A stretch of DNA of 64,000 bases from an uncultured Pseudomonadales bacterium. Lineage in GTDB: Bacteria; Patescibacteriota; Microgenomatia; UBA1400; PJMF01. Shown here piece after piece: positions 24,568 through 38,544 of the stretch. Each line of letters begins with the position of its first letter. The stretch's first letter is position 1. The translations under genes and the position numbers were made by a program. The notes under the pieces were generated by a model. The model was given only the letters and a program-made list of their open reading frames with translations. It made no database searches and had not been told where the DNA came from. The stretch covers positions 128,514 to 192,513 of the forward strand of contig CAYWDM010000003.1 in NCBI GenBank assembly GCA_964457085.1, read 5' to 3'.

Positions 24568-25506
24568 ATGGCGATCTCTACTCTACCAGCTGTTGCGATG
24601 ATCGATTTTCTCGAGGCAATTGAGGTTGAGAGAAATCTAAGTCGACTCACAATTCGCAATTATGGCCATTATTTGCGCAGATTCAATGACTGGTTTATTA
24701 AGCAAGGATACACTGATCTCAAACAATTGGACCGTGATGTGATGCGTAAGTACCGAATTTTCTTAGCACGGTATGTAGATGACCAAGCAAGAATGCTGTC
24801 GAAGAAAACTCAAAGCTATCACGTGATTGCCATGCGTTCTTGGTTGAAATGGTTGGTTAAAAATGACGCTGCAGTACTTGCTCCTGAGAAAGTTGACCTT
24901 CCCAAGGCGGAGTCAACTCCAATGAAGTTTATGATGGCGGATAAAATTGAGCGCTTGCTGAGTCAACCTCTGAGCTCTACCCCACCAGGCTTACGTGATA
25001 AGGCAATGCTTGAGGTACTCTTTTCTACAGGGTTGCGGGTGAGTGAGCTTGTAGGTATGAATCGAGACCAGATTGATCTCGATAGGCGAGAGTTTGGGGT
25101 GATAGGCAAAGGGCGTCGACCTAGAGTGGTGTTTTTGAGTGAACGTGCTCATTTATGGTTGTCTCGTTGGCTAAACAGTCGAGAGGATAATTGGCGGCCA
25201 GTTTTTGTAAATTTCTCTGGTAAAAAATGTGATCCCTATGCCGATGGCGAAGAAAAACGGCTTTCCACACGTAGTGTTCAGCGAATGGTTGATACATATT
25301 GCCGGAAGGCAAAATTGCCTATTAAGCTCAGTCCGCATGGCATAAGACACAGCTTTGCAACTGATCTTTTAGCGAATGGTGCGGGGCTTCGCGATGTTCA
25401 AGAAATGCTGGGTCATAAAAACATCGCAACCACTCAAATCTATACACACGTTACCCGTCCACAATTAAAAAAGGCCTATGATTCATTCCATACTAAGCTT
25501 GAATGA
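24568..25506 (+). CDS. Tyrosine recombinase, XerC/XerD family
   Basis: Catalytic-domain motifs RDKAMLEVLFSTGLRVSELVGM (box I, Arg), GKGRRPRVVFL (K), HGIRHSFATDLLANGAGLRDVQEMLGHKNIATTQIYTHV (H-R-H...Y). Confidence 0.9.
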   Translation: MAISTLPAVAMIDFLEAIEVERNLSRLTIRNYGHYLRRFNDWFIKQGYTDLKQLDRDVMRKYRIFLARYVDDQARMLSKKTQSYHVIAMRSWLKWLVKNDAAVLAPEKVDLPKAESTPMKFMMADKIERLLSQPLSSTPPGLRDKAMLEVLFSTGLRVSELVGMNRDQIDLDRREFGVIGKGRRPRVVFLSERAHLWLSRWLNSREDNWRPVFVNFSGKKCDPYADGEEKRLSTRSVQRMVDTYCRKAKLPIKLSPHGIRHSFATDLLANGAGLRDVQEMLGHKNIATTQIYTHVTRPQLKKAYDSFHTKLE

Positions 25507-25775: not shown

Positions 25776-25849
25776 GGGCCGATAGCTCAGTTGGCTAGAG
25801 CGCCTGCATGGCATGCAGGAGGTCAGGGGTTCGAGCCCCCTCCGGTCCA
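25776..25849 (+). tRNA. tRNA-Ala (anticodon GGC)
   Basis: Acceptor GGGCCGA with a G3:U70 pair. D-arm GCTC-AGTTGGCTA-GAGC. Anticodon stem CCTGC/GCAGG with loop ATGGCAT gives GGC. T-arm AGGGG-TTCGAGC-CCCCT. One A7:C66 mismatch. Confidence 0.8.
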
Positions 25850-25890: not shown

Positions 25891-26117
25891 ATTTGAATCT
25901 CATCAGATTCTTGAAATGCGTAAAGCGATACCTTTACATCAAGCTTTAGATGATCCACCAATCCTTTTTGCTATTTTGTTGTTTGTCTGTTATACTGCCG
26001 TTCTTCGGTTTGAAAAGGTGAGCTTTCCCCTTAATGTGATTCTTTCCAGAAGGTTTGTTAGAAATAACGACAACGTGCCGCTTGCGAAAGCGCGAGCAGC
26101 CTTGTTGGAAAGAGTAT

Positions 26118-27329
26118 ATGTTATACGCTCACAGCGGACGTTTTCGTCCGTCATCTTCATTTGGTTCTAGAGGTCCAAATCGCCGCCGATCTGATCGGGG
26201 TCATGCTGGATTTCGCTCGAACTCAACACCTATTGCAGCTAGTCGCTATGTCAACCAAGCTGCCGAGTTGATCGAAGGCCCAAAGGCTGTTATCACCCAT
26301 CAATTCACTGATTTTGGTCTAGATGAAAGAATTGTTGCCAACGTAGTCAGACATGGATATGGCGAACCAACTCCAATTCAAGACCAGATAATTCCTTTAA
26401 TGCTGACTGGGAAAGATGTGGTTGGTATTGCTAATACAGGTACAGGTAAAACTGCAGCTTTCTTATTACCATTACTGCACAAGGTATTGAATGATAACAA
26501 ACAAGGGGTCTTGATCGTGGTGCCTACTCGAGAGTTGGCAGCCCAAATTCGAGATGAATTGACTCATTTCGCTCAAGATCTTCCAGTAAGTATGTGTCTG
26601 TGCGTAGGCGGCGTTGGTATTCAACCCCAAATCAGCAAAGTCTCGCATAATCCACATTTTGTGATTGGTACTCCAGGTCGAATCAAAGACTTAGTTAATA
26701 GAGGAGCTTTAAAAACTGCCTCATACACTAACGTCGTACTTGATGAAGTCGACCGGATGCTGGACATAGGATTTGTGCATGATATTCGTTTCTTAATTGA
26801 TCGATTGCCAGCTGTGCGTCAATCTGGTTTCTTTAGTGCAACCATGACCAACCAAGTGAAGCCAATCATGCAGTCATTTCTAGACAATCCAGTGACGGTA
26901 AGTGTTGAAACTGCTCGGACTAGTGCACACATCCATCAAGATGTAGTTCGCATTGCTCCAGGCCAGAACAAAGCTGAAGTCTTGCATGACTTGTTGATTC
27001 AAGAAGAATTCAGTCGAGTGATTGTGTTTGGTAGAACCAAGCATGGCATCAACAAACTCGAAATGATGCTGTCTGGTAGAGGGTTACGCGTTTGTGCTAT
27101 TCATGGCAACAAATCTCAAAATGCTAGACAACAGGCTTTGCAGCAATTCAAACGAGGATTTGCCCAAGCTCTACTGGCCACCGATGTGGCAGCTAGAGGT
27201 ATCGACATTGATGGTGTAACTCATGTCATTAACTATGACGAGCCAAACTGTTATGACGATTACGTCCATCGTATTGGTCGAACCGGTCGAGCTGGCAAAA
27301 CCGGCAAAGCTTTAACTTTCGTCGGCTAA
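26118..27329 (+). CDS. DEAD-box ATP-dependent RNA helicase with an Arg/Gly-rich N-terminal tail
   Basis: Q motif plus motif I (GYGEPTPIQDQ...ANTGTGKTAAF). Motif II is DEVD. SAT motif. Motif VI HRIGRTGRAG. Start uncertain (26055 TTG or 26118 ATG). Confidence 0.9.
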   Translation: MLYAHSGRFRPSSSFGSRGPNRRRSDRGHAGFRSNSTPIAASRYVNQAAELIEGPKAVITHQFTDFGLDERIVANVVRHGYGEPTPIQDQIIPLMLTGKDVVGIANTGTGKTAAFLLPLLHKVLNDNKQGVLIVVPTRELAAQIRDELTHFAQDLPVSMCLCVGGVGIQPQISKVSHNPHFVIGTPGRIKDLVNRGALKTASYTNVVLDEVDRMLDIGFVHDIRFLIDRLPAVRQSGFFSATMTNQVKPIMQSFLDNPVTVSVETARTSAHIHQDVVRIAPGQNKAEVLHDLLIQEEFSRVIVFGRTKHGINKLEMMLSGRGLRVCAIHGNKSQNARQQALQQFKRGFAQALLATDVAARGIDIDGVTHVINYDEPNCYDDYVHRIGRTGRAGKTGKALTFVG

Positions 27330-27358
27330 TTGACAATAACAAGCAATATTGATATATT
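27330..27358 (+). promoter_or_regulatory. Cassette-1 sigma70-type promoter, immediately after the helicase stop codon
   Basis: TTGACA at 27330-27335 (-35), then a 17-nt spacer, then TATATT at 27353-27358 (-10). Confidence 0.55.
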
Positions 27359-27567
27359 ATAGGATGTACTGTTGCCTGCTGGGTGTTTCTCAACTTGGCG
27401 ACTGTACAAACTTTTAGGCACGTTAACAGGAAAAAGGAAGAGAAAAAGTGGTGGTCGAACTGAGCGACTGACTGGTTTTAAACCAGATCGGATGCTGAGT
27501 TTGACCACCACACAAAGGCTGTGTAGCCTGTGGTGTAATTTTTTTTACAGCCCGGAGGGCATAAAGC

Positions 27568-27783
27568 ATGGCAAACGTAAAAGTTGCAGAAGCAAAAGAT
27601 CGACTCGTTGAGGTTAAAAGGAAAGAGGACATCGTCCCGATCCTGGAAAAACTTGACAGCGATCTGGATAGATTTACTGCGTTGGATTTAGCGGTTAGTT
27701 TTGCTGAGTCCAATCTCGAAGAAACCGCTCCGATTCAAGAATGGCTCAAGTTTTATCGAGACATTTATCGCGGGCAAAAATAA
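27568..27783 (+). CDS. Small protein, 71 aa (cassette 1), hypothetical
   Basis: GGAGG SD 9 nt upstream of the ATG. Helical, charged protein (MANVKVAEAKDRLVEVKRKEDIV...). Preceded by an approximately 200-nt structured leader. Confidence 0.55.
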   Translation: MANVKVAEAKDRLVEVKRKEDIVPILEKLDSDLDRFTALDLAVSFAESNLEETAPIQEWLKFYRDIYRGQK

Positions 27784-27815
27784 CGTATTTTCTCTCTCCT
27801 CCTCCAGTTTCGTGC

Positions 27816-27866
27816 CAGGCCCCGCTCTCAACAAGTGGGGCTTGTCATTTTCAAACACCTTTTTTG
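27816..27866 (+). terminator. Cassette-1 intrinsic terminator
   Basis: Roughly 10-bp stem (CAGGCCCCGC ... GTGGGGCTTG), followed by the conserved tail CTTGTCATTTTCAAACACCTTTTTTG. Confidence 0.55.
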
Positions 27867-27872
27867 AGTATC

Positions 27873-27901
27873 TTGACCAAATAACCAATGATTGATATAT
27901 T
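27873..27901 (+). promoter_or_regulatory. Cassette-2 sigma70-type promoter
   Basis: TTGACC, then a 17-nt spacer, then TATATT. Near-identical to the cassette 1 and 3 promoters, including the TATATTAT(G/A)GG start region. Confidence 0.55.
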
Positions 27902-28094
27902 ATGGGCTGTCATATTGCCACTTAGAATTATTTCTATCAAGGCGATTTGGCAAATAGAATCGGCACGTTAATAGTTGAAATGATTAGAGTCACTTAAAGT
28001 GGTGGTTGGCAAAGCTGTTTATTTTGACAGTTTTGCCAACCACCACTAGCCCGTAAGGCTTGAGGTGAGAATTTTTTCTCAGGAGAACATGGTT

Positions 28095-28310
28095 ATGAAC
28101 TTCACAGAAGTCACAGAGCATTTAGCGATTTGCGATGACAAAAGTCGCGCCCAGAAGTTGCTGGAATATCTGGATGCAACTCGTCATAAGGAAGCACTGC
28201 TGGAAGCTCGGCGTCTCGCCGGGCAGACAGTAGGCGTTAGTCTTCAAGGAGGCGAAAAGCATCCTCGAATGGTTATGCTCCAGGAGATGATTAACAAGCT
28301 CACCGAGTGA
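28095..28310 (+). CDS. Small protein, 71 aa (cassette 2), hypothetical
   Basis: AGGAG SD 9 nt upstream of the ATG at 28095; the in-frame ATG at 28089 has only 3-nt spacing. The track ORF 28065 starts at a GTG. Confidence 0.55.
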   Translation: MNFTEVTEHLAICDDKSRAQKLLEYLDATRHKEALLEARRLAGQTVGVSLQGGEKHPRMVMLQEMINKLTE

Positions 28311-28333
28311 CCTATATTTTGACCCAACGTGCC

Positions 28334-28383
28334 AAGCCCTTCCCCTAATCCGGAAGGGCTTGTCATTTCTAAATACTTTTTTT
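28334..28383 (+). terminator. Cassette-2 intrinsic terminator
   Basis: 10-bp perfect stem AAGCCCTTCC / GGAAGGGCTT, then the conserved tail TGTCATTTCTAAATACTTTTTTTTG. Confidence 0.65.
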
Positions 28384-28405
28384 GCATAAATACAAAAAAA
28401 CTTTC

Positions 28406-28433
28406 TTGACTTGTCTGGTAAAGATGATATATT
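28406..28433 (+). promoter_or_regulatory. Cassette-3 sigma70-type promoter
   Basis: TTGACT, then a 16-nt spacer, then TATATT, then ATGGG. Confidence 0.55.
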
Positions 28434-28619
28434 ATGGGTCGTGATGAGCTGCTTGGATGACTTTGGCTGTCTATAGCGGCGAAATCGCATGTACGTTAAC
28501 AGAGGAAGAAGAAATGAAGTGGTAATCGAGTGAAATCTTCATTGAAGTTGGAGGTTTAATTTGATTACCACTTTTCAGCGTGAGAGGTGGGTCAAAATTC
28601 TTAGCAAGAGAGGTGTTTC

Positions 28620-28817
28620 ATGCCAGCAGTTTATGATCGATATACTGTTCGATGGCTGTTGATTTATGCAGCCAATACCGTGGAAATAAGTACCGCCTTT
28701 AAAGACAATAAAGTGCCTGAGGCAGACCAGCGTGGTCTGCTTGAAGAGGCTTTGGCCGATGACGCGGTCAAACCTGGGTCGAAATCGGCTGAGTTGCTTG
28801 GTTCACTGCTCACATAG
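28620..28817 (+). CDS. Small protein, 65 aa (cassette 3), hypothetical
   Basis: GAGAGG SD 6 nt upstream of the ATG. The leader carries the same ACGTTAACAG box and a GTGGTAATC/GATTACCAC helix. Confidence 0.5.
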   Translation: MPAVYDRYTVRWLLIYAANTVEISTAFKDNKVPEADQRGLLEEALADDAVKPGSKSAELLGSLLT

Positions 28818-28893
28818 TCATCTTTTCCTCCTTAACGTTGGGCCCTCTTCTTTGCGGAAGGGGGCTCAACTACTTTTAGGACCTTTTTTAACC

Positions 28894-28922
28894 AAAAAAC
28901 CCGTCATTGCTGGCGGGTTTTT
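28894..28922. terminator. Bidirectional intrinsic terminator shared by cassette 3 and convergent gyrA
   Basis: AAAAAA, then CCCGTCA-TTGC-TGGCGGG, then TTTTT. A second hairpin at 28839-28866 lies upstream. Confidence 0.65.
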
Positions 28923-28940
28923 CAATTACAAAACTAAAAA

Positions 28941-31796
28941 CTATTTTTTCTCTTCTCCGATTTCTTCTTTTTCGACTAAGGCTACAGCCACAACACAGTC
29001 GGTCTCTTTGAGTTTCATCAAAATCACGCCTTGTGTTGGTCGAGTTAGTAGTGGTACTGAGCTTCCTTTCAAAGGCAATTTGATGGTGGTGCCTTCTTTG
29101 GTGCTGATAACTACGTTTTCGTCGAGAGGTCCAATGAGCTTGGCAGCGGCAATTTTACCAGTGCGTGAGGTGACTTCTGCAACTTTAACGCCAAGACCAG
29201 ATCGTTTTTGTACTGGGTATTGGCTGAGCAAGGTTTTCTTGCCGAGACCGTTTTCAGTGACGATCAGCAACGGGGTCTTGTTGAGAATAGCTGGGTCTTC
29301 TGGGAACGCTTCTACGCCGATGACATAGTCGCTGGCTCGCAAAGTGATGCCACGGACACCTTTGGTGTCACGTTGAGAAGACTTGACCTCAACCTCGCTA
29401 AAGCGGATTGATTTACCTTCGTATGAAATCAACATAATGTTGTCTTCACCAGAGGTAATTTTGCCCCAGACCAACTCATCTTCCTTATTAAGTGAAATAG
29501 CGACGATGCCGTTTTGGCGAATATTGTCGTAAAGCTTGACTGCAGTTTTCTTAACTAATCCCTGGCGGGTGGCCAAGGTGATGTATTTGGTAGCATCGCC
29601 AATTTCGTCGAAAACGATGATTGATTGGGCTCGCTCCTCGGCTTTTAGGTTGAGCAAATTAACGATAGCAGTTCCCTTGGCTTGGCGACTGGCATCTGGC
29701 ATTTCGTGTGCCTTCATCCGGAAAACACGACCTTGGTTGGTAAAGATTAGTAAAGTGTCGTGAGTGGTACAGCTGACCAAGCACTTAAGCATGTCCTCGT
29801 GCTTCATCGAGAGACCCATGGCACCTTTGCCACCTCTGGATTGTGAGCGGAATGAGCCTGGGCTCATACGTTTTACATAGCCACTCTCAGTGAGTGTGAT
29901 CACAGTTGCTTCATCAGCAACCAGATCTTCTTCACTAAATTCATCAACCTTGCCTTTGACTAATTTAGTCTTGCGAGCATCGCCATACAAACCGATGAGT
30001 TCATTGGTTTCACTGACAACTACATCGAGAATTTCTTGTGGGTGACTCAAGAGTTTAATTAATTTACCGATTGTTTCTTGAATGGCTTTATATTCATCCT
30101 CAATCTTCTGACGCTCGAGAGCAGCTAGTCGTTTGAGTTGCATTTCAAGGATGGCAGTTGATTGAATGTCGCTGAGACCAAACTTAGCCATCAGTGCGTT
30201 ATGAGCTGTCTCAGTGTCTGGAGAGCGTCTAATGGTATCAATTACGTCATCTAGATTTTTAAGTGCAATGAGTAATCCCTCTAGGATATGAGCCCGATCT
30301 CTGGACTCAGAGAGCTCATATTGACTTCTTTTCACAATCACTAGCTGGCGATGGACAATATATTCCTTGAGCACTTGGCGGATGTTCATCAGCTGAGGAG
30401 TACCCTCACTGTTGAGTGCCACCATGTTTAAGGAAAAAGTAGTCTGGAGATCAGTGTACTTGAATAATTTATTGAGAATGACTTTTGGCTTGGCATCGCG
30501 CTTCAACTCGATGGTCATCTGCATACCTTTACGGTCAGAGTCATCTCTAAGACTGCGAATACCAACGATTTTTTTATCGCGTACTAGATCAGCAATCTTC
30601 ATTAATAATTTGGCTTTGTTGACTTGATATGGGAGTTCAGTAATTACAATCTTGAAGCTGCCCTTTTCACCTTCTTCAATCGAGGCTTTACCACGAATTA
30701 AGATTCGACCCTTACCAGTTTGGTAGGCCTGCTTGATGGTGGCAAAATCGTAGATAATGGCTGCAGTTGGGAAATCTGGACCTTTAACATATTCCATGAT
30801 TTCTTCGACAGTGGTCTCGGAATTGAATTCTCCGGCCAGCATTTTTGGATCTGCATGCAAGAGTGTTTCGACTTCAGTACTGGTTGAAAGTGCGATTTCT
30901 GAGGGTGCAGAGGCAGTTGTGGCTTTGGCTGCCAGTGAATCGACAGCTTTTTTGTTAGCAGTGGCTGACTCTCCCTCGGTTTGAATCGAGGTGGCGGTGC
31001 CAGCTTTGATCATGGCGATGACCGCATTACTCACCTCAGTGAGATTATGTGGTGGAATTTTGGTAGCCATACCAACGGCAATGCCTTCAGAACCCATGAG
31101 TAACAGATTTGGCAATCTGGTGGGAAGCACTAATGGTTCTTTGATGGAGCCATCGAAGTTATCCCCCATCGGTACAGTGTTTTTATTGAGATCGGCAAGT
31201 AATTCTTGGGAAATCTTAGCTAACCGAGCCTCGGTGTAACGCATAGCAGCTGGGCTATCGCCATCGATAGAACCAAAGTTTCCTTGGCCATCAATCAGTG
31301 GATATCGCATGCTAAATGACTGTGCAAGTCTAACTAATGCCATGTAGACAGAGGAATCACCATGGGGGTGATAGCGACCGAGCACATCACCGACAATACG
31401 GGCTGATTTTTTATATGAACCACTGTGGTGAATGCCACTTTTAAACATTGAGAACAAGATGCGACGATGCACTGGCTTGAGTCCATCACGAACATCTGGT
31501 AGTGCACGAGCTACGATGACGCTCATGGCGTAGTCAAGATAACTCTTCTCCATTTCATCTACGATCGACATGTGTTTAAACTTGCCAAACCTGGTCTCTT
31601 CAATGGTGCCGATCAATGAGGCTGCTGCCTCGGCAGCTAGTTCTTGTTCGGAAACGGATTGATTTTCAGGAGTAAGCTCCACGACAGCAGCTTCAGCTGC
31701 TAGTTCATCAGCGGTGAGATCTGCTGACTCAACCTCATCGATTTCCTCGACTTCGGCTACTTCGTTTTCGTTATCTGGACGATCTTGATCTGTCAT
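28941..31796 (-). CDS. gyrA: DNA gyrase subunit A (951 aa, with an Ala/Ser/Thr-rich insertion of about 55-60 aa)
   Basis: Active-site region AMRYTEARL (Tyr). N-terminal acidic extension. C-terminal beta-pinwheel repeats. The insertion lies between [16 protein letters not shown] and [10 protein letters not shown]. Confidence 0.97.
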
Positions 31797-35541: not shown

Positions 35542-38500
35542 ATGAGCGAGCCTGTCCAAAACAACCAGTCTGCCCCAGCTGGCACTGATCCTGCTGTTGC
35601 TGCATCTGATGCAGTAGCTATGGCAGATGCAGCAGTGTCGGAAGCTGATTTATCCGCGGCTCTTGCTGAGGTCGATAAAATGGATGCCACTACTTCAGAT
35701 GGAAGTGATGTGGTGAATTCGCTGTCGGTTGATTCTGCTATTGAAGCAACCATCCCCTCTGACTCAGGTGAAATTGAAGCTGTGGCCAATAGTGCTGCAG
35801 AGCAGTTATCCAATGAATCCGTGCCCAACCAAGATCAACTCGATGCAATCGCCAATCAGGTAGAACAAACAGTCTTTGGAGAGGCAGAGTCGACATCTTC
35901 GAATCAAACTGTTAATAGTGAAATTACGCCAACTATTTCAGGTGTTGTTGTTGCCCAACCAACTATCTCGCCAGCTCCAGTTTCACCAGCGATGGTGCCA
36001 CGTCAAGTAACTCCTGCCCCCGTAGCAGTTGCATTTCAAGCGACTCCTGTTGCCGCTATTGCACCAACAGTGCCACCTCAGATTCAAAATTTGTCCAACC
36101 AAGCACCTCAAATGCCACCAGGTTATCCGCAGCAAGGTGGCTTTGCACCCACATCCAATCAAAATACCAGCTTTAGTTCCCAGATGGCTCCATCTCTCGC
36201 TCAACCTCAGATGGGATATCAGAACAATGCTGGTATGGGGATGCAGCAGCCTAACACTGGACAAATGAATGGTGGATATGGTGCAGCACCAGGACAGCAA
36301 GGTGGTGGCCAAAGCTTTGCACAGCAAATGCCAATGTACCAAAATGGCCAATATCAAAATCAGAATGGTCAATTTGGTGCTCAATCACCAAATCAAGGAC
36401 AGTTTTTGCCTCAAATGCAAAATTTGCCCAACCAAGCATCTCAAATGCCACCAGGATATCCGCTGCAAGGTGGCTTTGCACCCACATCCAATCAAATGTC
36501 TGGCCAGCCCAACCAAACTGGTGGCCAAAGCTTCACACAGCAAATGCCACCAGGTTATCCACAACAGAGTTTTGTTGGCAGTGCTCCCCCACCATCACCC
36601 CAGATGCAAAGCCAGCCAGTTGCTCCACAAGCATTAGTTCCGGGGACCATTATTTCTGGTCCAGGAGCGTCAATTGCGTCCGCAGTGCCGAATGTTAATA
36701 CGGCTAGTCCAACACCACCTGCACCAGCTCCAGCTACTCCAGCTCCAGCCGAGAATCCAGCTGTTACTCCGCCAGCAACTCCTGCTCCCATTATTTCGAG
36801 CGGTGGATTTAAGACATATAGCAGTTTAGTAGATGTCTTGGCTGAGATGCAGTTGTTGACACCCGAGCAACTCAATCAACTGAAGCAAGAATTATTGACG
36901 ACCGGCCGAAGTTATGATGATTTGTTGATTGAGAAAAAGTGGTTGTCCGAAGAAAGTCTCACCAAAGCCAAAGCAAAACTCAACAATTTACCGTTTATTA
37001 CAATTGGAGAGACAGGTATCTCACCAGAAGCATTAAGCAAGCTTGACGAGAGCGTGGCACATCGCTATGGCATCTTGCCATTTGCAATCGACAAAGTGGA
37101 ACGTAAGTTGTCTGTGGCCATGAAGAATCCACTGGATATCCAGGCTGTTGGATTTGTAGAGCAGAAAACAGGGTTTAAGTTAGCCATTTACTACGCCAGT
37201 CCGACTGAAATCGAGCGCATCATTGTAGAGCGATACGCTCAGAATTTATCTTCAGAGGTAAATGAGGCACTCAAAGATACGGATCAGTCAAAGGCTAGGC
37301 ACAAAGAGCAAACCGAACAACTCAACAACTTTGGTGGAGTCATTCGCGACGCACCAATTAATCGAATTGTAGAAACTATTTTAGAATTTGCCGTTAAATC
37401 TCGTGCCTCTGATATTCACATTGAGCCACTGCCAAATAAAGTGCGGGTTCGGTACCGCATTGACGGTATCTTGGTAGAAAAATTAATTCTACCTAGAAGT
37501 GTGATTGATGCGGTAGTGTCTCGTATTAAGATTTTGGGCAACATGAAGATTGACGAACGACGGATTCCTCAGGATGGTCGTTTTAGTTACAACAATGATG
37601 AAAAGAATGTAGATCTGCGTGTATCTACAATTCCTACAGTTCATGGTGAGAAGATCAACTTGCGGTTACTCGAGAAGAATCTCAATGTTCCCACAATGGA
37701 ACAATTAGGCTTGGAAGGTTTGTCTTTGGCAAACGTTAAAGAAGCCATTAAGGTGCCGCACGGTATCATCCTAATTTCAGGTCCAACTGGATCAGGTAAG
37801 ACCACTACTTTGTATTCCTTGATTCATATACTGAATACGCCAAAAGTGAACATCGTGACCTTGGAAGATCCTGTTGAGTACCAGATGCTTGGCGTTAACC
37901 AAGTTCAGATTAATCCAAAAGCAGGTTTGACCTTTTCAACGGGGCTGCGTGCGTTCTTGCGGCAAGATCCAAATATTATCATGGTTGGAGAAATGCGTGA
38001 CCGCGAAACTACTGAGTTGGCAATCCAAGCGTCACTTACTGGTCACTTAGTGTTTTCCACTATTCATACTTCTTCAGCTGCTACTGCTCTACCCCGTATG
38101 ATAGATATGGGTGCTGAGAATTTCTTAATTGCATCATCAGTTACTCTAATCATGGCACAGCGTGTGGTGCGTAAAATTAACCCTGCCTATTTAGAGGAAT
38201 ATGTTCCTGAGCCAGCTGTGGTAGCGGACATTTCAAAGGTTTTGGGAGTACATTTTGATAACTGGCTAATGCAACATGGAAAAACACCTCAAACAGTTAC
38301 TTTGTTCAGACCAAGTGCAAATCGCCCGGAAAATGAACCAGAGTATCTTGGTCGTATGGCTATTTATGAGGTGTTACGGATGACTGAAGTAATTGGTCGA
38401 ATGGTGCTGCAAAATCGACCTGCAAGCGAGATTGAACAGGAAGCATTGCGAAATGGTATGTTGCTCATGAAGCAGGATGGATATCTTAAGGCACTTAATG

Positions 38501-38544
38501 GACTTACAACTATCGAAGAAATATTACGTGTGGCAGATGTTTAA
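35542..38544 (+). CDS. pilB: Type IV pilus assembly ATPase PilB/GspE family, with a low-complexity N-terminal extension of about 430 aa
   Basis: C-terminal Walker A GPTGSGKTTT, Asp box, His box. GSPII_N-like domain (LTPEQLNQLKQELLTTGRSYDDLLI...). Residues 1-430 are A/Q/P/G/N-rich with internal repeats. Confidence 0.9.
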   Translation: MSEPVQNNQSAPAGTDPAVAASDAVAMADAAVSEADLSAALAEVDKMDATTSDGSDVVNSLSVDSAIEATIPSDSGEIEAVANSAAEQLSNESVPNQDQLDAIANQVEQTVFGEAESTSSNQTVNSEITPTISGVVVAQPTISPAPVSPAMVPRQVTPAPVAVAFQATPVAAIAPTVPPQIQNLSNQAPQMPPGYPQQGGFAPTSNQNTSFSSQMAPSLAQPQMGYQNNAGMGMQQPNTGQMNGGYGAAPGQQGGGQSFAQQMPMYQNGQYQNQNGQFGAQSPNQGQFLPQMQNLPNQASQMPPGYPLQGGFAPTSNQMSGQPNQTGGQSFTQQMPPGYPQQSFVGSAPPPSPQMQSQPVAPQALVPGTIISGPGASIASAVPNVNTASPTPPAPAPATPAPAENPAVTPPATPAPIISSGGFKTYSSLVDVLAEMQLLTPEQLNQLKQELLTTGRSYDDLLIEKKWLSEESLTKAKAKLNNLPFITIGETGISPEALSKLDESVAHRYGILPFAIDKVERKLSVAMKNPLDIQAVGFVEQKTGFKLAIYYASPTEIERIIVERYAQNLSSEVNEALKDTDQSKARHKEQTEQLNNFGGVIRDAPINRIVETILEFAVKSRASDIHIEPLPNKVRVRYRIDGILVEKLILPRSVIDAVVSRIKILGNMKIDERRIPQDGRFSYNNDEKNVDLRVSTIPTVHGEKINLRLLEKNLNVPTMEQLGLEGLSLANVKEAIKVPHGIILISGPTGSGKTTTLYSLIHILNTPKVNIVTLEDPVEYQMLGVNQVQINPKAGLTFSTGLRAFLRQDPNIIMVGEMRDRETTELAIQASLTGHLVFSTIHTSSAATALPRMIDMGAENFLIASSVTLIMAQRVVRKINPAYLEEYVPEPAVVADISKVLGVHFDNWLMQHGKTPQTVTLFRPSANRPENEPEYLGRMAIYEVLRMTEVIGRMVLQNRPASEIEQEALRNGMLLMKQDGYLKALNGLTTIEEILRVADV
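36088..36560 (+). repeat. Intragenic tandem duplication inside the pilB N-terminal extension
   Basis: 76-bp units at 36088-36163 and 36421-36496 differ at only 4 positions. The sub-repeat GGTGGCCAAAGCTT(T/C)(G/A)CACAGCAAATGCCA occurs at 36304 and 36520. CAAATGCCACCAGG(T/A)TATCC occurs three times. Confidence 0.6.

Follow-up and report, generated by a model that had tools for sequence, protein, structure and literature searches.

Tandem small-protein transcription units with a predicted long-range helix between the 5' and 3' untranslated regions in a Patescibacteria lineage

Functional pairing of the 5' with the 3' untranslated region (UTR) of one bacterial mRNA has been described in single genes (RNAIII, icaR and hbs), and was reported not to be conserved even in close relatives (PMC7821165). 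In the hbs mRNA of Bacillus subtilis, a 14-bp pairing of the two UTRs upstream of the ribosome binding site (RBS) limits cleavage by RNase Y (Braun, Durand and Condon 2017, PMC5737220), and the stability of the mRNA is tied to its translation (PMC5737220, PMC7821165). In Bacillus thuringiensis cry3A, a Shine-Dalgarno (SD)-like element of the 5'UTR, called STAB-SD, stabilises the mRNA (PMC4113751). Here we describe three tandem units of about 530 nucleotides (nt) at 27330-28870 of a 64-kb stretch of contig CAYWDM010000003.1 (the window), each of which is predicted to give a small-protein mRNA whose 5'UTR pairs with its own 3'UTR. The unit set analysed comes from five genomes (the window and contigs L004, L005, L015 and L016) and comprises 11 complete units and a truncated one, plus a fragment in L006. 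We think it somewhat more probable than otherwise that these units have a closed-loop mRNA architecture like that of hbs, which would probably govern mRNA stability.

The three units lie between a DEAD-box helicase gene (26118..27329, + strand) and the convergent gyrA (28941-31796, - strand), and each contains a near-consensus promoter, a leader of about 180-200 nt, an SD sequence, a small open reading frame (ORF) and a GC-rich terminator hairpin. The sequence ACGTTAAYAG (the box) occurs exactly three times in the 64-kb window (27420-27429, 27965-27974 and 28493-28502), and three occurrences were reached in none of 100 shuffles. It starts 60-64 nt after the -10 element, which corresponds to roughly +55 to +60 in the predicted transcript, downstream of a 5'-terminal hairpin (P1). 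The first-pass annotation of this DNA had reported the box, the purine-rich run after it, the motif AAGTGGT and the arms of a leader helix, and all of them are present where it had placed them. In relatives, AAGTGGT and the box end 'CAG' vary, while the core (A/G)C(G/A)UUAAC and an SD-like purine tract are found in every unit. The box (consensus (G)GC(A/G)CGUUAAC) and the following purine tract are predicted to make up the 5' arm of a long-range helix. The stretch between stop codon and terminator of each unit is the reverse complement of this region and makes up the 3' arm, which consists of an anti-SD-like CU-rich tract (UUUCUCCUCC and similar) and then UUAACG(U/C)(GCC), beginning 0-7 nt past the stop codon and ending at the base of the terminator hairpin.

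In minimum free energy folds of the complete transcripts, the 5'-3' helix is formed in 11 of 11 units (3 from the window and 8 from L004, L005, L015 and L016), with 15-27 pairs in each. As a control, 289 random 470-nt segments of the window showed a mean of 0.6 pairs at the equivalent positions, and at least 10 pairs were found in 8 of 289. In the folding ensemble, the pairing probability between the box core and the 3'UTR is 0.57-1.0. The arms of the first seven units were delimited by hand, giving duplex energies of -16.5 to -28.8 kcal/mol and z-scores of -2.8 to -6.0 against composition-matched shuffled 3' arms. Automatic delimitation was used for all 11 units and gave z-scores of -2.6 to -6.4 in ten of them and -0.6 in unit 3 of the window, because the 3' arm of this unit was clipped by two nucleotides. 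The arms of unit 1 were also called as an inverted repeat by an independent repeat finder. As in interactions of the hbs type, the complementarity of 5' and 3'UTR in cis exceeds chance, and the predicted helix is placed upstream of the RBS without sequestering it.

All arms of the window are on the + strand. In unit 1, the 5' arm at 27417..27446 (box GGCACGTTAACAG and SD-like purine tract) pairs with the 3' arm at 27788..27816 (UUUUCUCUCUCCUCCUCC...CGUGCC), which starts 4 nt past the stop codon and runs up to the terminator stem. The 5' arm of unit 2 at 27962..27992 (GGCACGTTAATAG with a diverged tract, UUGAAAUGAUUAGAGUCAC) has its partner at 28308..28333 (UGACCUAUAUUUUGACCCAACGUGCC), which begins within the stop codon and forms three G-U pairs. 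The helix of unit 3 joins 28493..28512 (ACGUUAACAGAGGAAGAAGA) with 28821..28838 (UCUUUUCCUCCUUAACGU), the latter starting 3 nt past the stop codon.

The two arms also change together. The box is nearly invariant, and each of its two observed changes has a counterpart in the 3' arm: box position 0 forms an A-U pair in 6 of 10 distinct rows and a G-C pair in 4 of 10, and at the second changed position 9 of 10 rows have G-C and one has A-U (unit B of L015, CAUUAAC/GUUAAUG). In this last unit the central CG is changed to CA and UUAAUG replaces UUAACG in the 3' arm, so that a perfect 10-bp helix, GCGCAUUAAC/GUUAAUGCGC, is formed. The tracts diverge among unit lineages, and their 3' partners follow. 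When 3' arms were ranked by duplex energy, the cognate arm took first place in 6 of 11 units and second place in another 2. The margin is wide in the most diverged units: the 5' arm of unit 2 reaches -28.9 kcal/mol with the 3' arm of the same unit and -17.7 kcal/mol with the best foreign arm, and for unit B of L015 the values are -29.0 and -14.0 kcal/mol. Between unit A of L004 and that of L005, the differences in the 3' arm sit in an internal loop, outside the paired blocks. As a predicted structure, the 5'-3' architecture is well supported by folding, statistics and covariation, and the box seems to be conserved mainly as one strand of the helix, possibly with a sequence-specific reader in addition.

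Several points weigh against this reading. In unit 3 of the window, L4B and L16A, the best partner is a 3' arm other than the cognate one. When the concatenated arms were aligned with MAFFT, RNAalifold returned a consensus of 7 bp only, because the arms vary in register and bulges, and in a gap-free alignment of the box 70% of cells are paired and covariation is seen at two or three positions only. The sample covers about five or six independent unit lineages from five genomes that are close relatives, and the transcript ends were taken from matches to consensus promoters and terminators. The long-range helix has 6 G-U pairs among 139 and is equally stable on the opposite strand, which fits an RNA helix and a DNA-level inverted repeat alike. 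Moreover, the long hairpin of the leader (P2) keeps its pairing despite free sequence change, so the box is conserved beyond the needs of pairing and its sequence may have another reader. The stabilising function is inferred purely by analogy.

The 3'UTR pairs with the upstream tract at -13.5 to -28.8 kcal/mol, compared with -7.4 to -12.4 kcal/mol for the true RBS. In the ensemble, the pairing probability between the SD and the 3'UTR is about 0 in 10 of 11 units, which differs from the pairing with the own SD that characterizes icaR. Thermodynamic prediction gave an RBS accessibility of 0.42 for the full-length transcript and 0.44 without the 3' arm, with no consistent direction among units. 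From the RBS accessibility, the preference for the tract and an SD masking that the units do not share, the helix seems to be neither a translational switch of icaR or hok type nor a thermometer; according to the predictions, it neither exposes nor hides the true SD.

In the folded mRNA, the order from 5' to 3' would be P1, a short linker, the 5' arm, P2, the variable region with the SD and the ORF, the 3' arm and the terminator hairpin. A panhandle of 15-27 bp would thus enclose P2, the RBS and the whole ORF, with P1 and the terminator at its outer end and P2 at its inner end. Such paired and hairpin-capped RNA ends would most probably shield the mRNA from 5'-end-dependent and 3'-exonucleolytic decay. 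Since the 3' arm lies nearly at the stop codon, terminating ribosomes would melt the inner half of the helix, and stability would be coupled to translation in this way. The duplexes of the long-range helix and of P2 would also be plausible substrates of RNase III.

The leaders themselves are highly structured, and the folds of the three window units have z-scores of -4.6 to -7.0 against shuffles. P1 is found at 27365..27408 in unit 1, at 27908..27952 in unit 2 and, as a B-type hairpin, at 28441..28488 in unit 3 (all + strand). It opens 1-3 nt past the predicted start in every unit, and double changes were counted in 9 of 18 pairs of the A-type alignment and in 9 of 20 pairs of the B-type one. 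P2 occupies 27448..27511 in unit 1, where it directly adjoins the 5' arm, 27997..28048 in unit 2, with 22 consecutive pairs, and 28516..28574 in unit 3 (all + strand). A multi-branch fold, in which a helix encloses a smaller hairpin, had been proposed for this part of the leader; instead, P2 is one nearly continuous long hairpin up to its terminal loop. The compensatory change proposed along with it holds well: among 12 leaders, 19 of 22 consensus pairs of P2 have double changes with the pairing kept. In total, 93.5% of cells are paired, compared with 21-46% when the 3' partners were slid by 1-3 columns, and the observed values were reached in 0 of 500 shuffles. That the structured leader is conserved is also borne out, as four other genomes carry it at homologous loci.

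P1 and the region after the box are rich in G-U pairs. The summed energy of the P1 region is -171 kcal/mol on the sense strand and -98 kcal/mol on the antisense strand, and for the region after the box, including P2, the values are -400 and -284 kcal/mol. The stability of the sense strand and the G-U richness therefore indicate that P1 and P2 act as RNA, transcribed from the + strand. A covariance model built from the box, the tract and P2 recovered the 12 leaders at 65-74 bits on the + strand, and no further copy was found with it in 137 kb of the window and related loci, nor in 106 kb of chance-match loci. Searching the window against Rfam gave nothing at gathering thresholds except three tRNAs, and at E up to 10 only sub-threshold matches to microRNA hairpins on P2 and no thermometer family.

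The rest of the leader is variable. In unit 1, the P3/P4 region (27512..27567, + strand) carries a U-rich loop and the SD GGAGGG at 27554-27559, and its structure is not conserved across units. The first-pass annotation had also described a hairpin that can occlude the SD. Such a hairpin is strong in three relatives, L004, L005 and L015, whose A-type units have one of -18 to -25 kcal/mol, but is weak or absent in most other units, so that the claim stands for these units and not as a common feature. The mean probability of being unpaired for the SD ranges from 0.19 to 0.56. A leader-peptide ORF behind the SD-like tract was considered as well and rejected, given that its start, frame and length are inconsistent (MKW*, MQK*, a 39-aa read-through, or none). 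Besides, 11 nt of the unit 2 3'UTR (28316-28326, ATTTTGACCCA) are perfectly complementary to 28588-28598 in the leader of unit 3, just upstream of its SD. This match may be a coincidence, because about 0.3 chance matches are expected in the 1.6-kb region, or it may be a contact between units.

Judged by its sequence signals, each unit appears to be a self-contained transcription unit, with a predicted mRNA of about 440-490 nt for a protein of 63-73 amino acids (aa). The promoters with their TG-extended -10 elements are the three top sigma-70-like matches of the region. The -10 hexamer TATATT is at 27353, 27896 and 28428, and the -10 block TGATATATTATRGG is limited to these three sites of the 64-kb window. 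The promoter of unit 1 (27330..27358, + strand) consists of TTGACA, a 17-nt spacer and TG-extended TATATT, agrees with the consensus at 11 of 12 positions and has its start predicted at about 27365. This pattern is kept in all units, with TTGACC and a 17-nt spacer in unit 2 (27873..27901, + strand) and TTGACT and a 16-nt spacer in unit 3 (28406..28433, + strand), both with TG-extended TATATT. Terminator hairpins with their tails are located at 27816..27853 (unit 1, T-rich tail), 28333..28371 (unit 2) and 28837..28880 (unit 3), again on the + strand. At 27327-27335, the TAA that ends the helicase gene reaches into TTGACA, the -35 element of unit 1, with no terminator in between, and transcripts reading through from the helicase would include unit 1 with P1 displaced from the 5' end. 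After unit 3, a second hairpin with T-runs on either side is found at 28892-28927 (AAAAAACCCGTCATTGCTGGCGGGTTTTT). It has a weak sub-threshold Rfam match to the rnk_pseudo leader (E 0.015) and is probably a bidirectional terminator common to unit 3 and the convergent gyrA.

The small ORFs of the window encode 71 aa in unit 1, 71 or 73 aa in unit 2 and 65 aa in unit 3. ORF1 (27568..27783, + strand; 71 aa) encodes an orphan small protein, for which no homologue besides itself was found among 5.8 billion protein clusters. ORF2 (28095..28310, + strand) has 71 aa from the ATG at 28095, with the SD AGGAG 8 nt upstream, and would have 73 aa from the ATG at 28089; it shows distant homology to the A-type ORFs found in L004 and L005. 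ORF3 (28620..28817, + strand; 65 aa) belongs to the ORF-B family and is predicted to be a four-helix protein. The ORF-B model has four helices with a pLDDT of 82.6 and no significant fold match in PDB, and a word-index search with ORF-B gave only the three already known proteins. Differences between ORF3 orthologues at codon positions 1, 2 and 3 number 11, 9 and 22, and this bias to the third position means that the family is truly coding. Identity between these orthologues is 35-39%, compared with 82% for the helicase, which indicates fast evolution. The small proteins are hydrophilic and helical. They have no match in Pfam, NCBIfam or PHROG, are not cold-shock-domain proteins, and no candidate binding domain was detected in them.

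Close homologues of the helicase (78-82% identity) lie on contigs L004, L005 and L006, which show the same architecture downstream of the helicase. L015 and L016 were reached via an exhaustive profile search with the ORF3 (ORF-B) family, which yielded two additional proteins. The helicase adjoins the units in 4 of 5 genomes. In L016 (2130-4000), a recombinase, tRNA-Ala, two units and gyrA follow each other, the units standing directly after the tRNA with no helicase gene, and helicase adjacency is therefore not obligatory. Around helicase homologues at 64-66% identity (L007-L009) the synteny is gone and the covariance model finds no copy. A strict motif scan of GTDB representative genomes gave no match. 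A helicase-anchored scan led to Dojkabacteria, where the match was a 50% identical and non-syntenic locus only and was discarded. A pattern scan of JGI metagenomes re-found L005 (as L011) and four chance matches and nothing else, a scan of viral contigs (IMG/VR) returned nine chance matches, none of which is recognised by the covariance model, and the phage and plasmid collections contained no related sequence. By these searches the element is confined to a narrow lineage, which, judged by the names of the helicase homologues and the best GTDB match, belongs to the Patescibacteria (candidate phyla radiation, CPR).

Within the unit, the UTRs are the conserved part. For unit A of L004 and L005, nucleotide identity is 83% in the leader, 81% in the 3'UTR and 51% in the coding sequence (CDS), compared with 84% for the helicase; in conservation the UTRs equal or surpass the CDS, and the UTR pair is therefore what is kept. 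The two unit A ORFs (L004 1768-1980 and L005 2650-2865) share 39% aa identity, and their flanking UTRs match the genomic background. This divergence of the CDS could be due to diversifying selection or to replacement of the ORF between conserved UTRs.

Other features of the relatives and of the surroundings were also recorded. Unit B of L015 (3795-4470) is bicistronic, with a 64-aa ORF of the ORF-B family and a 67-aa ORF starting 11 nt later, and its helix spans about 570 nt, still with perfect 10-bp pairing in the box. An ORF of 87-89 aa on the minus strand stands between the last unit and gyrA in L004 (2571-2837), L005 (3461-3730) and L015 (4513-4776), and is absent from the window and L016. 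Upstream of the locus, an XerC/D-like tyrosine recombinase (24568-25506) and a tRNA (25776-25849) are found in the window, L015 and L016. The anticodon of the tRNA is GGC by eye (Ala), and L005 has a partial, unannotated ORF at the position of the recombinase. The tRNA sequence is located directly upstream of the helicase in L004, L005 and L006 as well. Farther away, 88-nt direct repeats (93% identical, 333 nt apart), together with partial copies, are present at 36076-36566 within a 1000-aa ORF (35542-38544), which appears to encode a repeat-containing protein.

The box had at first been proposed, as a hypothesis, to resemble the cold box, and the leader to be an RNA thermometer or to form, with the adjacent helicase, a module in which translation is controlled through the helicase. 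It is true that the leaders fold with unusual stability (z-scores of -4.6 to -7.0) and that a helicase could aid their translation, that the helicase adjoins the units in 4 of 5 genomes with no terminator before unit 1, and that the A-type SD hairpin reaches -18 to -25 kcal/mol in relatives. However, the E. coli cold box TGACGTACAGA, which we verified in the cspA leader of strain MG1655, has no match with up to 2 mismatches in the three leaders; its alignment requires a 2-nt insertion, and the 'CAGA' part varies in relatives (ACAAGAGG, ACAACAAA, ACAAAGAG). The cspA cold box is at the extreme 5' end of its leader, 143-153 nt upstream of the ATG, whereas the box of the window is not close to the predicted transcript 5' end, and its conserved positions pair and covary with the 3'UTR of their own unit, which does not suit a cold-shock signal. 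The cargo does not consist of cold-shock-domain proteins, and the leader of the helicase itself was found to lack the box. The link to the helicase is synteny among close relatives only, L016 having units without it. A thermometer would be expected to have a conserved, marginally stable structure masking the SD or AUG, but SD masking is variable and unshared here and no thermometer family was matched in Rfam; altogether we regard this explanation as highly improbable. We also see little probability in a latent mRNA of hok or icaR type, in which the fold-back silences the message or targets it to RNase III until 3' trimming or another signal and the proteins are toxin-like or tightly dosed effectors. 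The units share the format of the hok family (about 400-500 nt, small ORF, conserved 5'-3' fold-back, high predicted stability; PMC9841398, PMC5416894), a fold-back closing the full-length mRNA is predicted as with tac/fbi of that family, the 3' arm is anti-SD-like (cf. icaR, PMC7821165), and the cargo is fast-evolving and lineage-restricted. Yet removal of the 3' arm moves the predicted RBS accessibility only from 0.42 to 0.44, the partner of the 3' arm is the upstream purine tract and not the true SD, the proteins are hydrophilic and helical, unlike hydrophobic type I toxins, and no promoter-like site for an antitoxin RNA is present on the minus strand within the units.

Alternatively, the arms may be inverted repeats at the DNA level, serving as recombination sites that invert or exchange the ORF segment, perhaps via the Xer-like tyrosine recombinase about 2 kb upstream, which we consider unlikely. 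Inverted repeats do flank the segment, as they do in invertons. Nearly all pairs between the arms are Watson-Crick, and their complementarity is the same on either strand; matched changes in both arms would also be given by recombination core sites. The unit A CDS differs sharply between L004 and L005 with conserved flanks on both sides, as cassette replacement would yield, and the tyrosine recombinase gene is upstream in the window, L015 and L016. Nevertheless, 11 of 11 units have the same promoter-proximal orientation in the five assemblies, where the segment was not seen in both orientations. The arm lengths differ, and bulges and internal loops shift the register between units; such variable bulges and loops are tolerated by RNA helices but generally not by recombinase sites. 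The arms are placed exactly between P1 and P2 and between stop and terminator, and are therefore positioned by features of the transcript. In addition, the helix of unit 2 contains three G-U pairs, the recombinase resembles an ordinary XerC/D-type enzyme, and no related sequence came from the phage and plasmid collections. If the box were chiefly a sequence-specific binding site, for autoregulation by the small protein, for an RNase or for an RNA-binding protein, the 3'UTR pairing would be secondary. The near-invariance of the core (A/G)C(G/A)UUAAC across units whose ORFs have no detectable similarity, while P2 drifts freely, would suit such a site, and so would the UU of the box, which is conserved in unit 1 and L015A although it is unpaired there. 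But the small proteins have no detected binding domain and both box changes are matched in the 3' arm, and we find this explanation quite improbable.

For the helicase, a better candidate for autoregulation than the box units is found in its own 5' leader (25997-26117). A 41-nt core (GGTTTGAAAAGGTGAGCTTTCCCCTTAATGTGATTCTTTC) at 26008-26048 is 100% identical in five genomes whose helicase CDS are 73-84% identical; the corresponding leaders are at 163-288 in L004, 1017-1146 in L005, 1855-1984 in L015 and 155-283 in L006. In the RNAalifold consensus, GAUUCUUUCC pairs with the SD region of the helicase (GGAAAGAG) just upstream of the ATG at 26118, and no Rfam match was found for this element. The predicted fold points to a long-range helix that would mask the SD, a candidate autoregulatory or temperature-sensing element. 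AACGTGCC in the same leader (26072) was considered as a partner of the box in trans and was attributed to chance, as it is not conserved in relatives.

In a broader reading, the leader would co-evolve with the 3'UTR, and the two would make up a portable closed-loop cassette from which a narrow Patescibacteria lineage expresses rapidly diversifying small helical proteins. The functional unit that is conserved would then be the UTR pair, with the CDS being swapped or diversified between the arms. We mention it as a doubtful extension. If true, the cassette would be the first family-level, covariation-supported mRNA cyclisation module of bacteria outside type I toxin mRNAs, possibly with latent-mRNA or cassette-exchange logic. 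The closed-loop architecture of the hbs kind, which we prefer, is reused by 11 mRNAs in five genomes, compared with the single-gene precedents. If confirmed, it would be a natural and evolutionarily validated model of end-to-end pairing in bacterial mRNA, and its compact 5'/3' UTR pair would be a candidate portable stability module. It would also offer a first view of post-transcriptional control in candidate-phyla bacteria, about which, to our knowledge, almost nothing is known. Moreover, the unsupported cold-shock reading of the locus is corrected.

Compared with known systems, the units are a previously undescribed RNA architecture within the known theme of 5'UTR-3'UTR interaction. The processing stalks of rRNA and phage mRNA are formed when the flanks of a functional RNA pair into a long duplex that is cut by RNase III. 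The units resemble them in the enclosing duplex; what is enclosed here is a small coding message. With the E. coli cold box of cspA, cspB and csdA (the 11-nt UGACGUACAGA), the units have in common a short conserved box, a long 5'UTR and the letters ACGU...ACAG, but the match needs a 2-nt insertion, transcript position and cargo differ, and the unit box pairs with the 3'UTR.

Long-distance 5'-3' pairing throughout a family and a very stable mRNA of about 400 nt with a small ORF are shared with the tac/fbi pairing of hok/sok and with Helicobacter pylori aapA1 (PMC9841398, PMC5416894). The hok fold-back governs SD masking, which is relieved by 3' trimming, and hok combines a hydrophobic toxin with an antisense RNA; the units lack a predicted SD switch, a hydrophobic peptide and an antisense promoter. 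In icaR, as in the units, a C/U-rich anti-SD-like motif of the 3'UTR pairs with a purine-rich part of the 5'UTR, and the duplex is a potential substrate of RNase III (PMC7821165). However, the 3'UTR of icaR pairs with the real SD of the gene and blocks initiation, whereas the 3'UTR of the units is predicted to pair with an SD-like tract located about 125-145 nt before the start codon.

STAB-SD and the units both have, in the 5'UTR, an SD-like purine sequence that is not used for initiation and lies over 100 nt before the start codon. STAB-SD is thought to bind the 3' end of 16S rRNA in the 30S subunit, whereas the units carry a 16S-like CCUCC tract in their own 3'UTR, which pairs in cis. With hbs, the units share a small-protein mRNA, a highly structured 5'UTR and 5'/3'UTR pairing in cis without masking of the SD. 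The pairing of hbs is 14 bp in a single gene, while that of the units is 15-27 bp and is flanked by a 5' hairpin, a long inner hairpin and a terminator. Unlike in hbs, the helix is found in 2-3 paralogous units per genome and is conserved with covariation in five genomes. The link between stability and translation described for hbs is one that we infer for the units. Taken by analogy, the closest match in logic would be the hbs mRNA of B. subtilis, and the idea behind STAB-SD would also be close.

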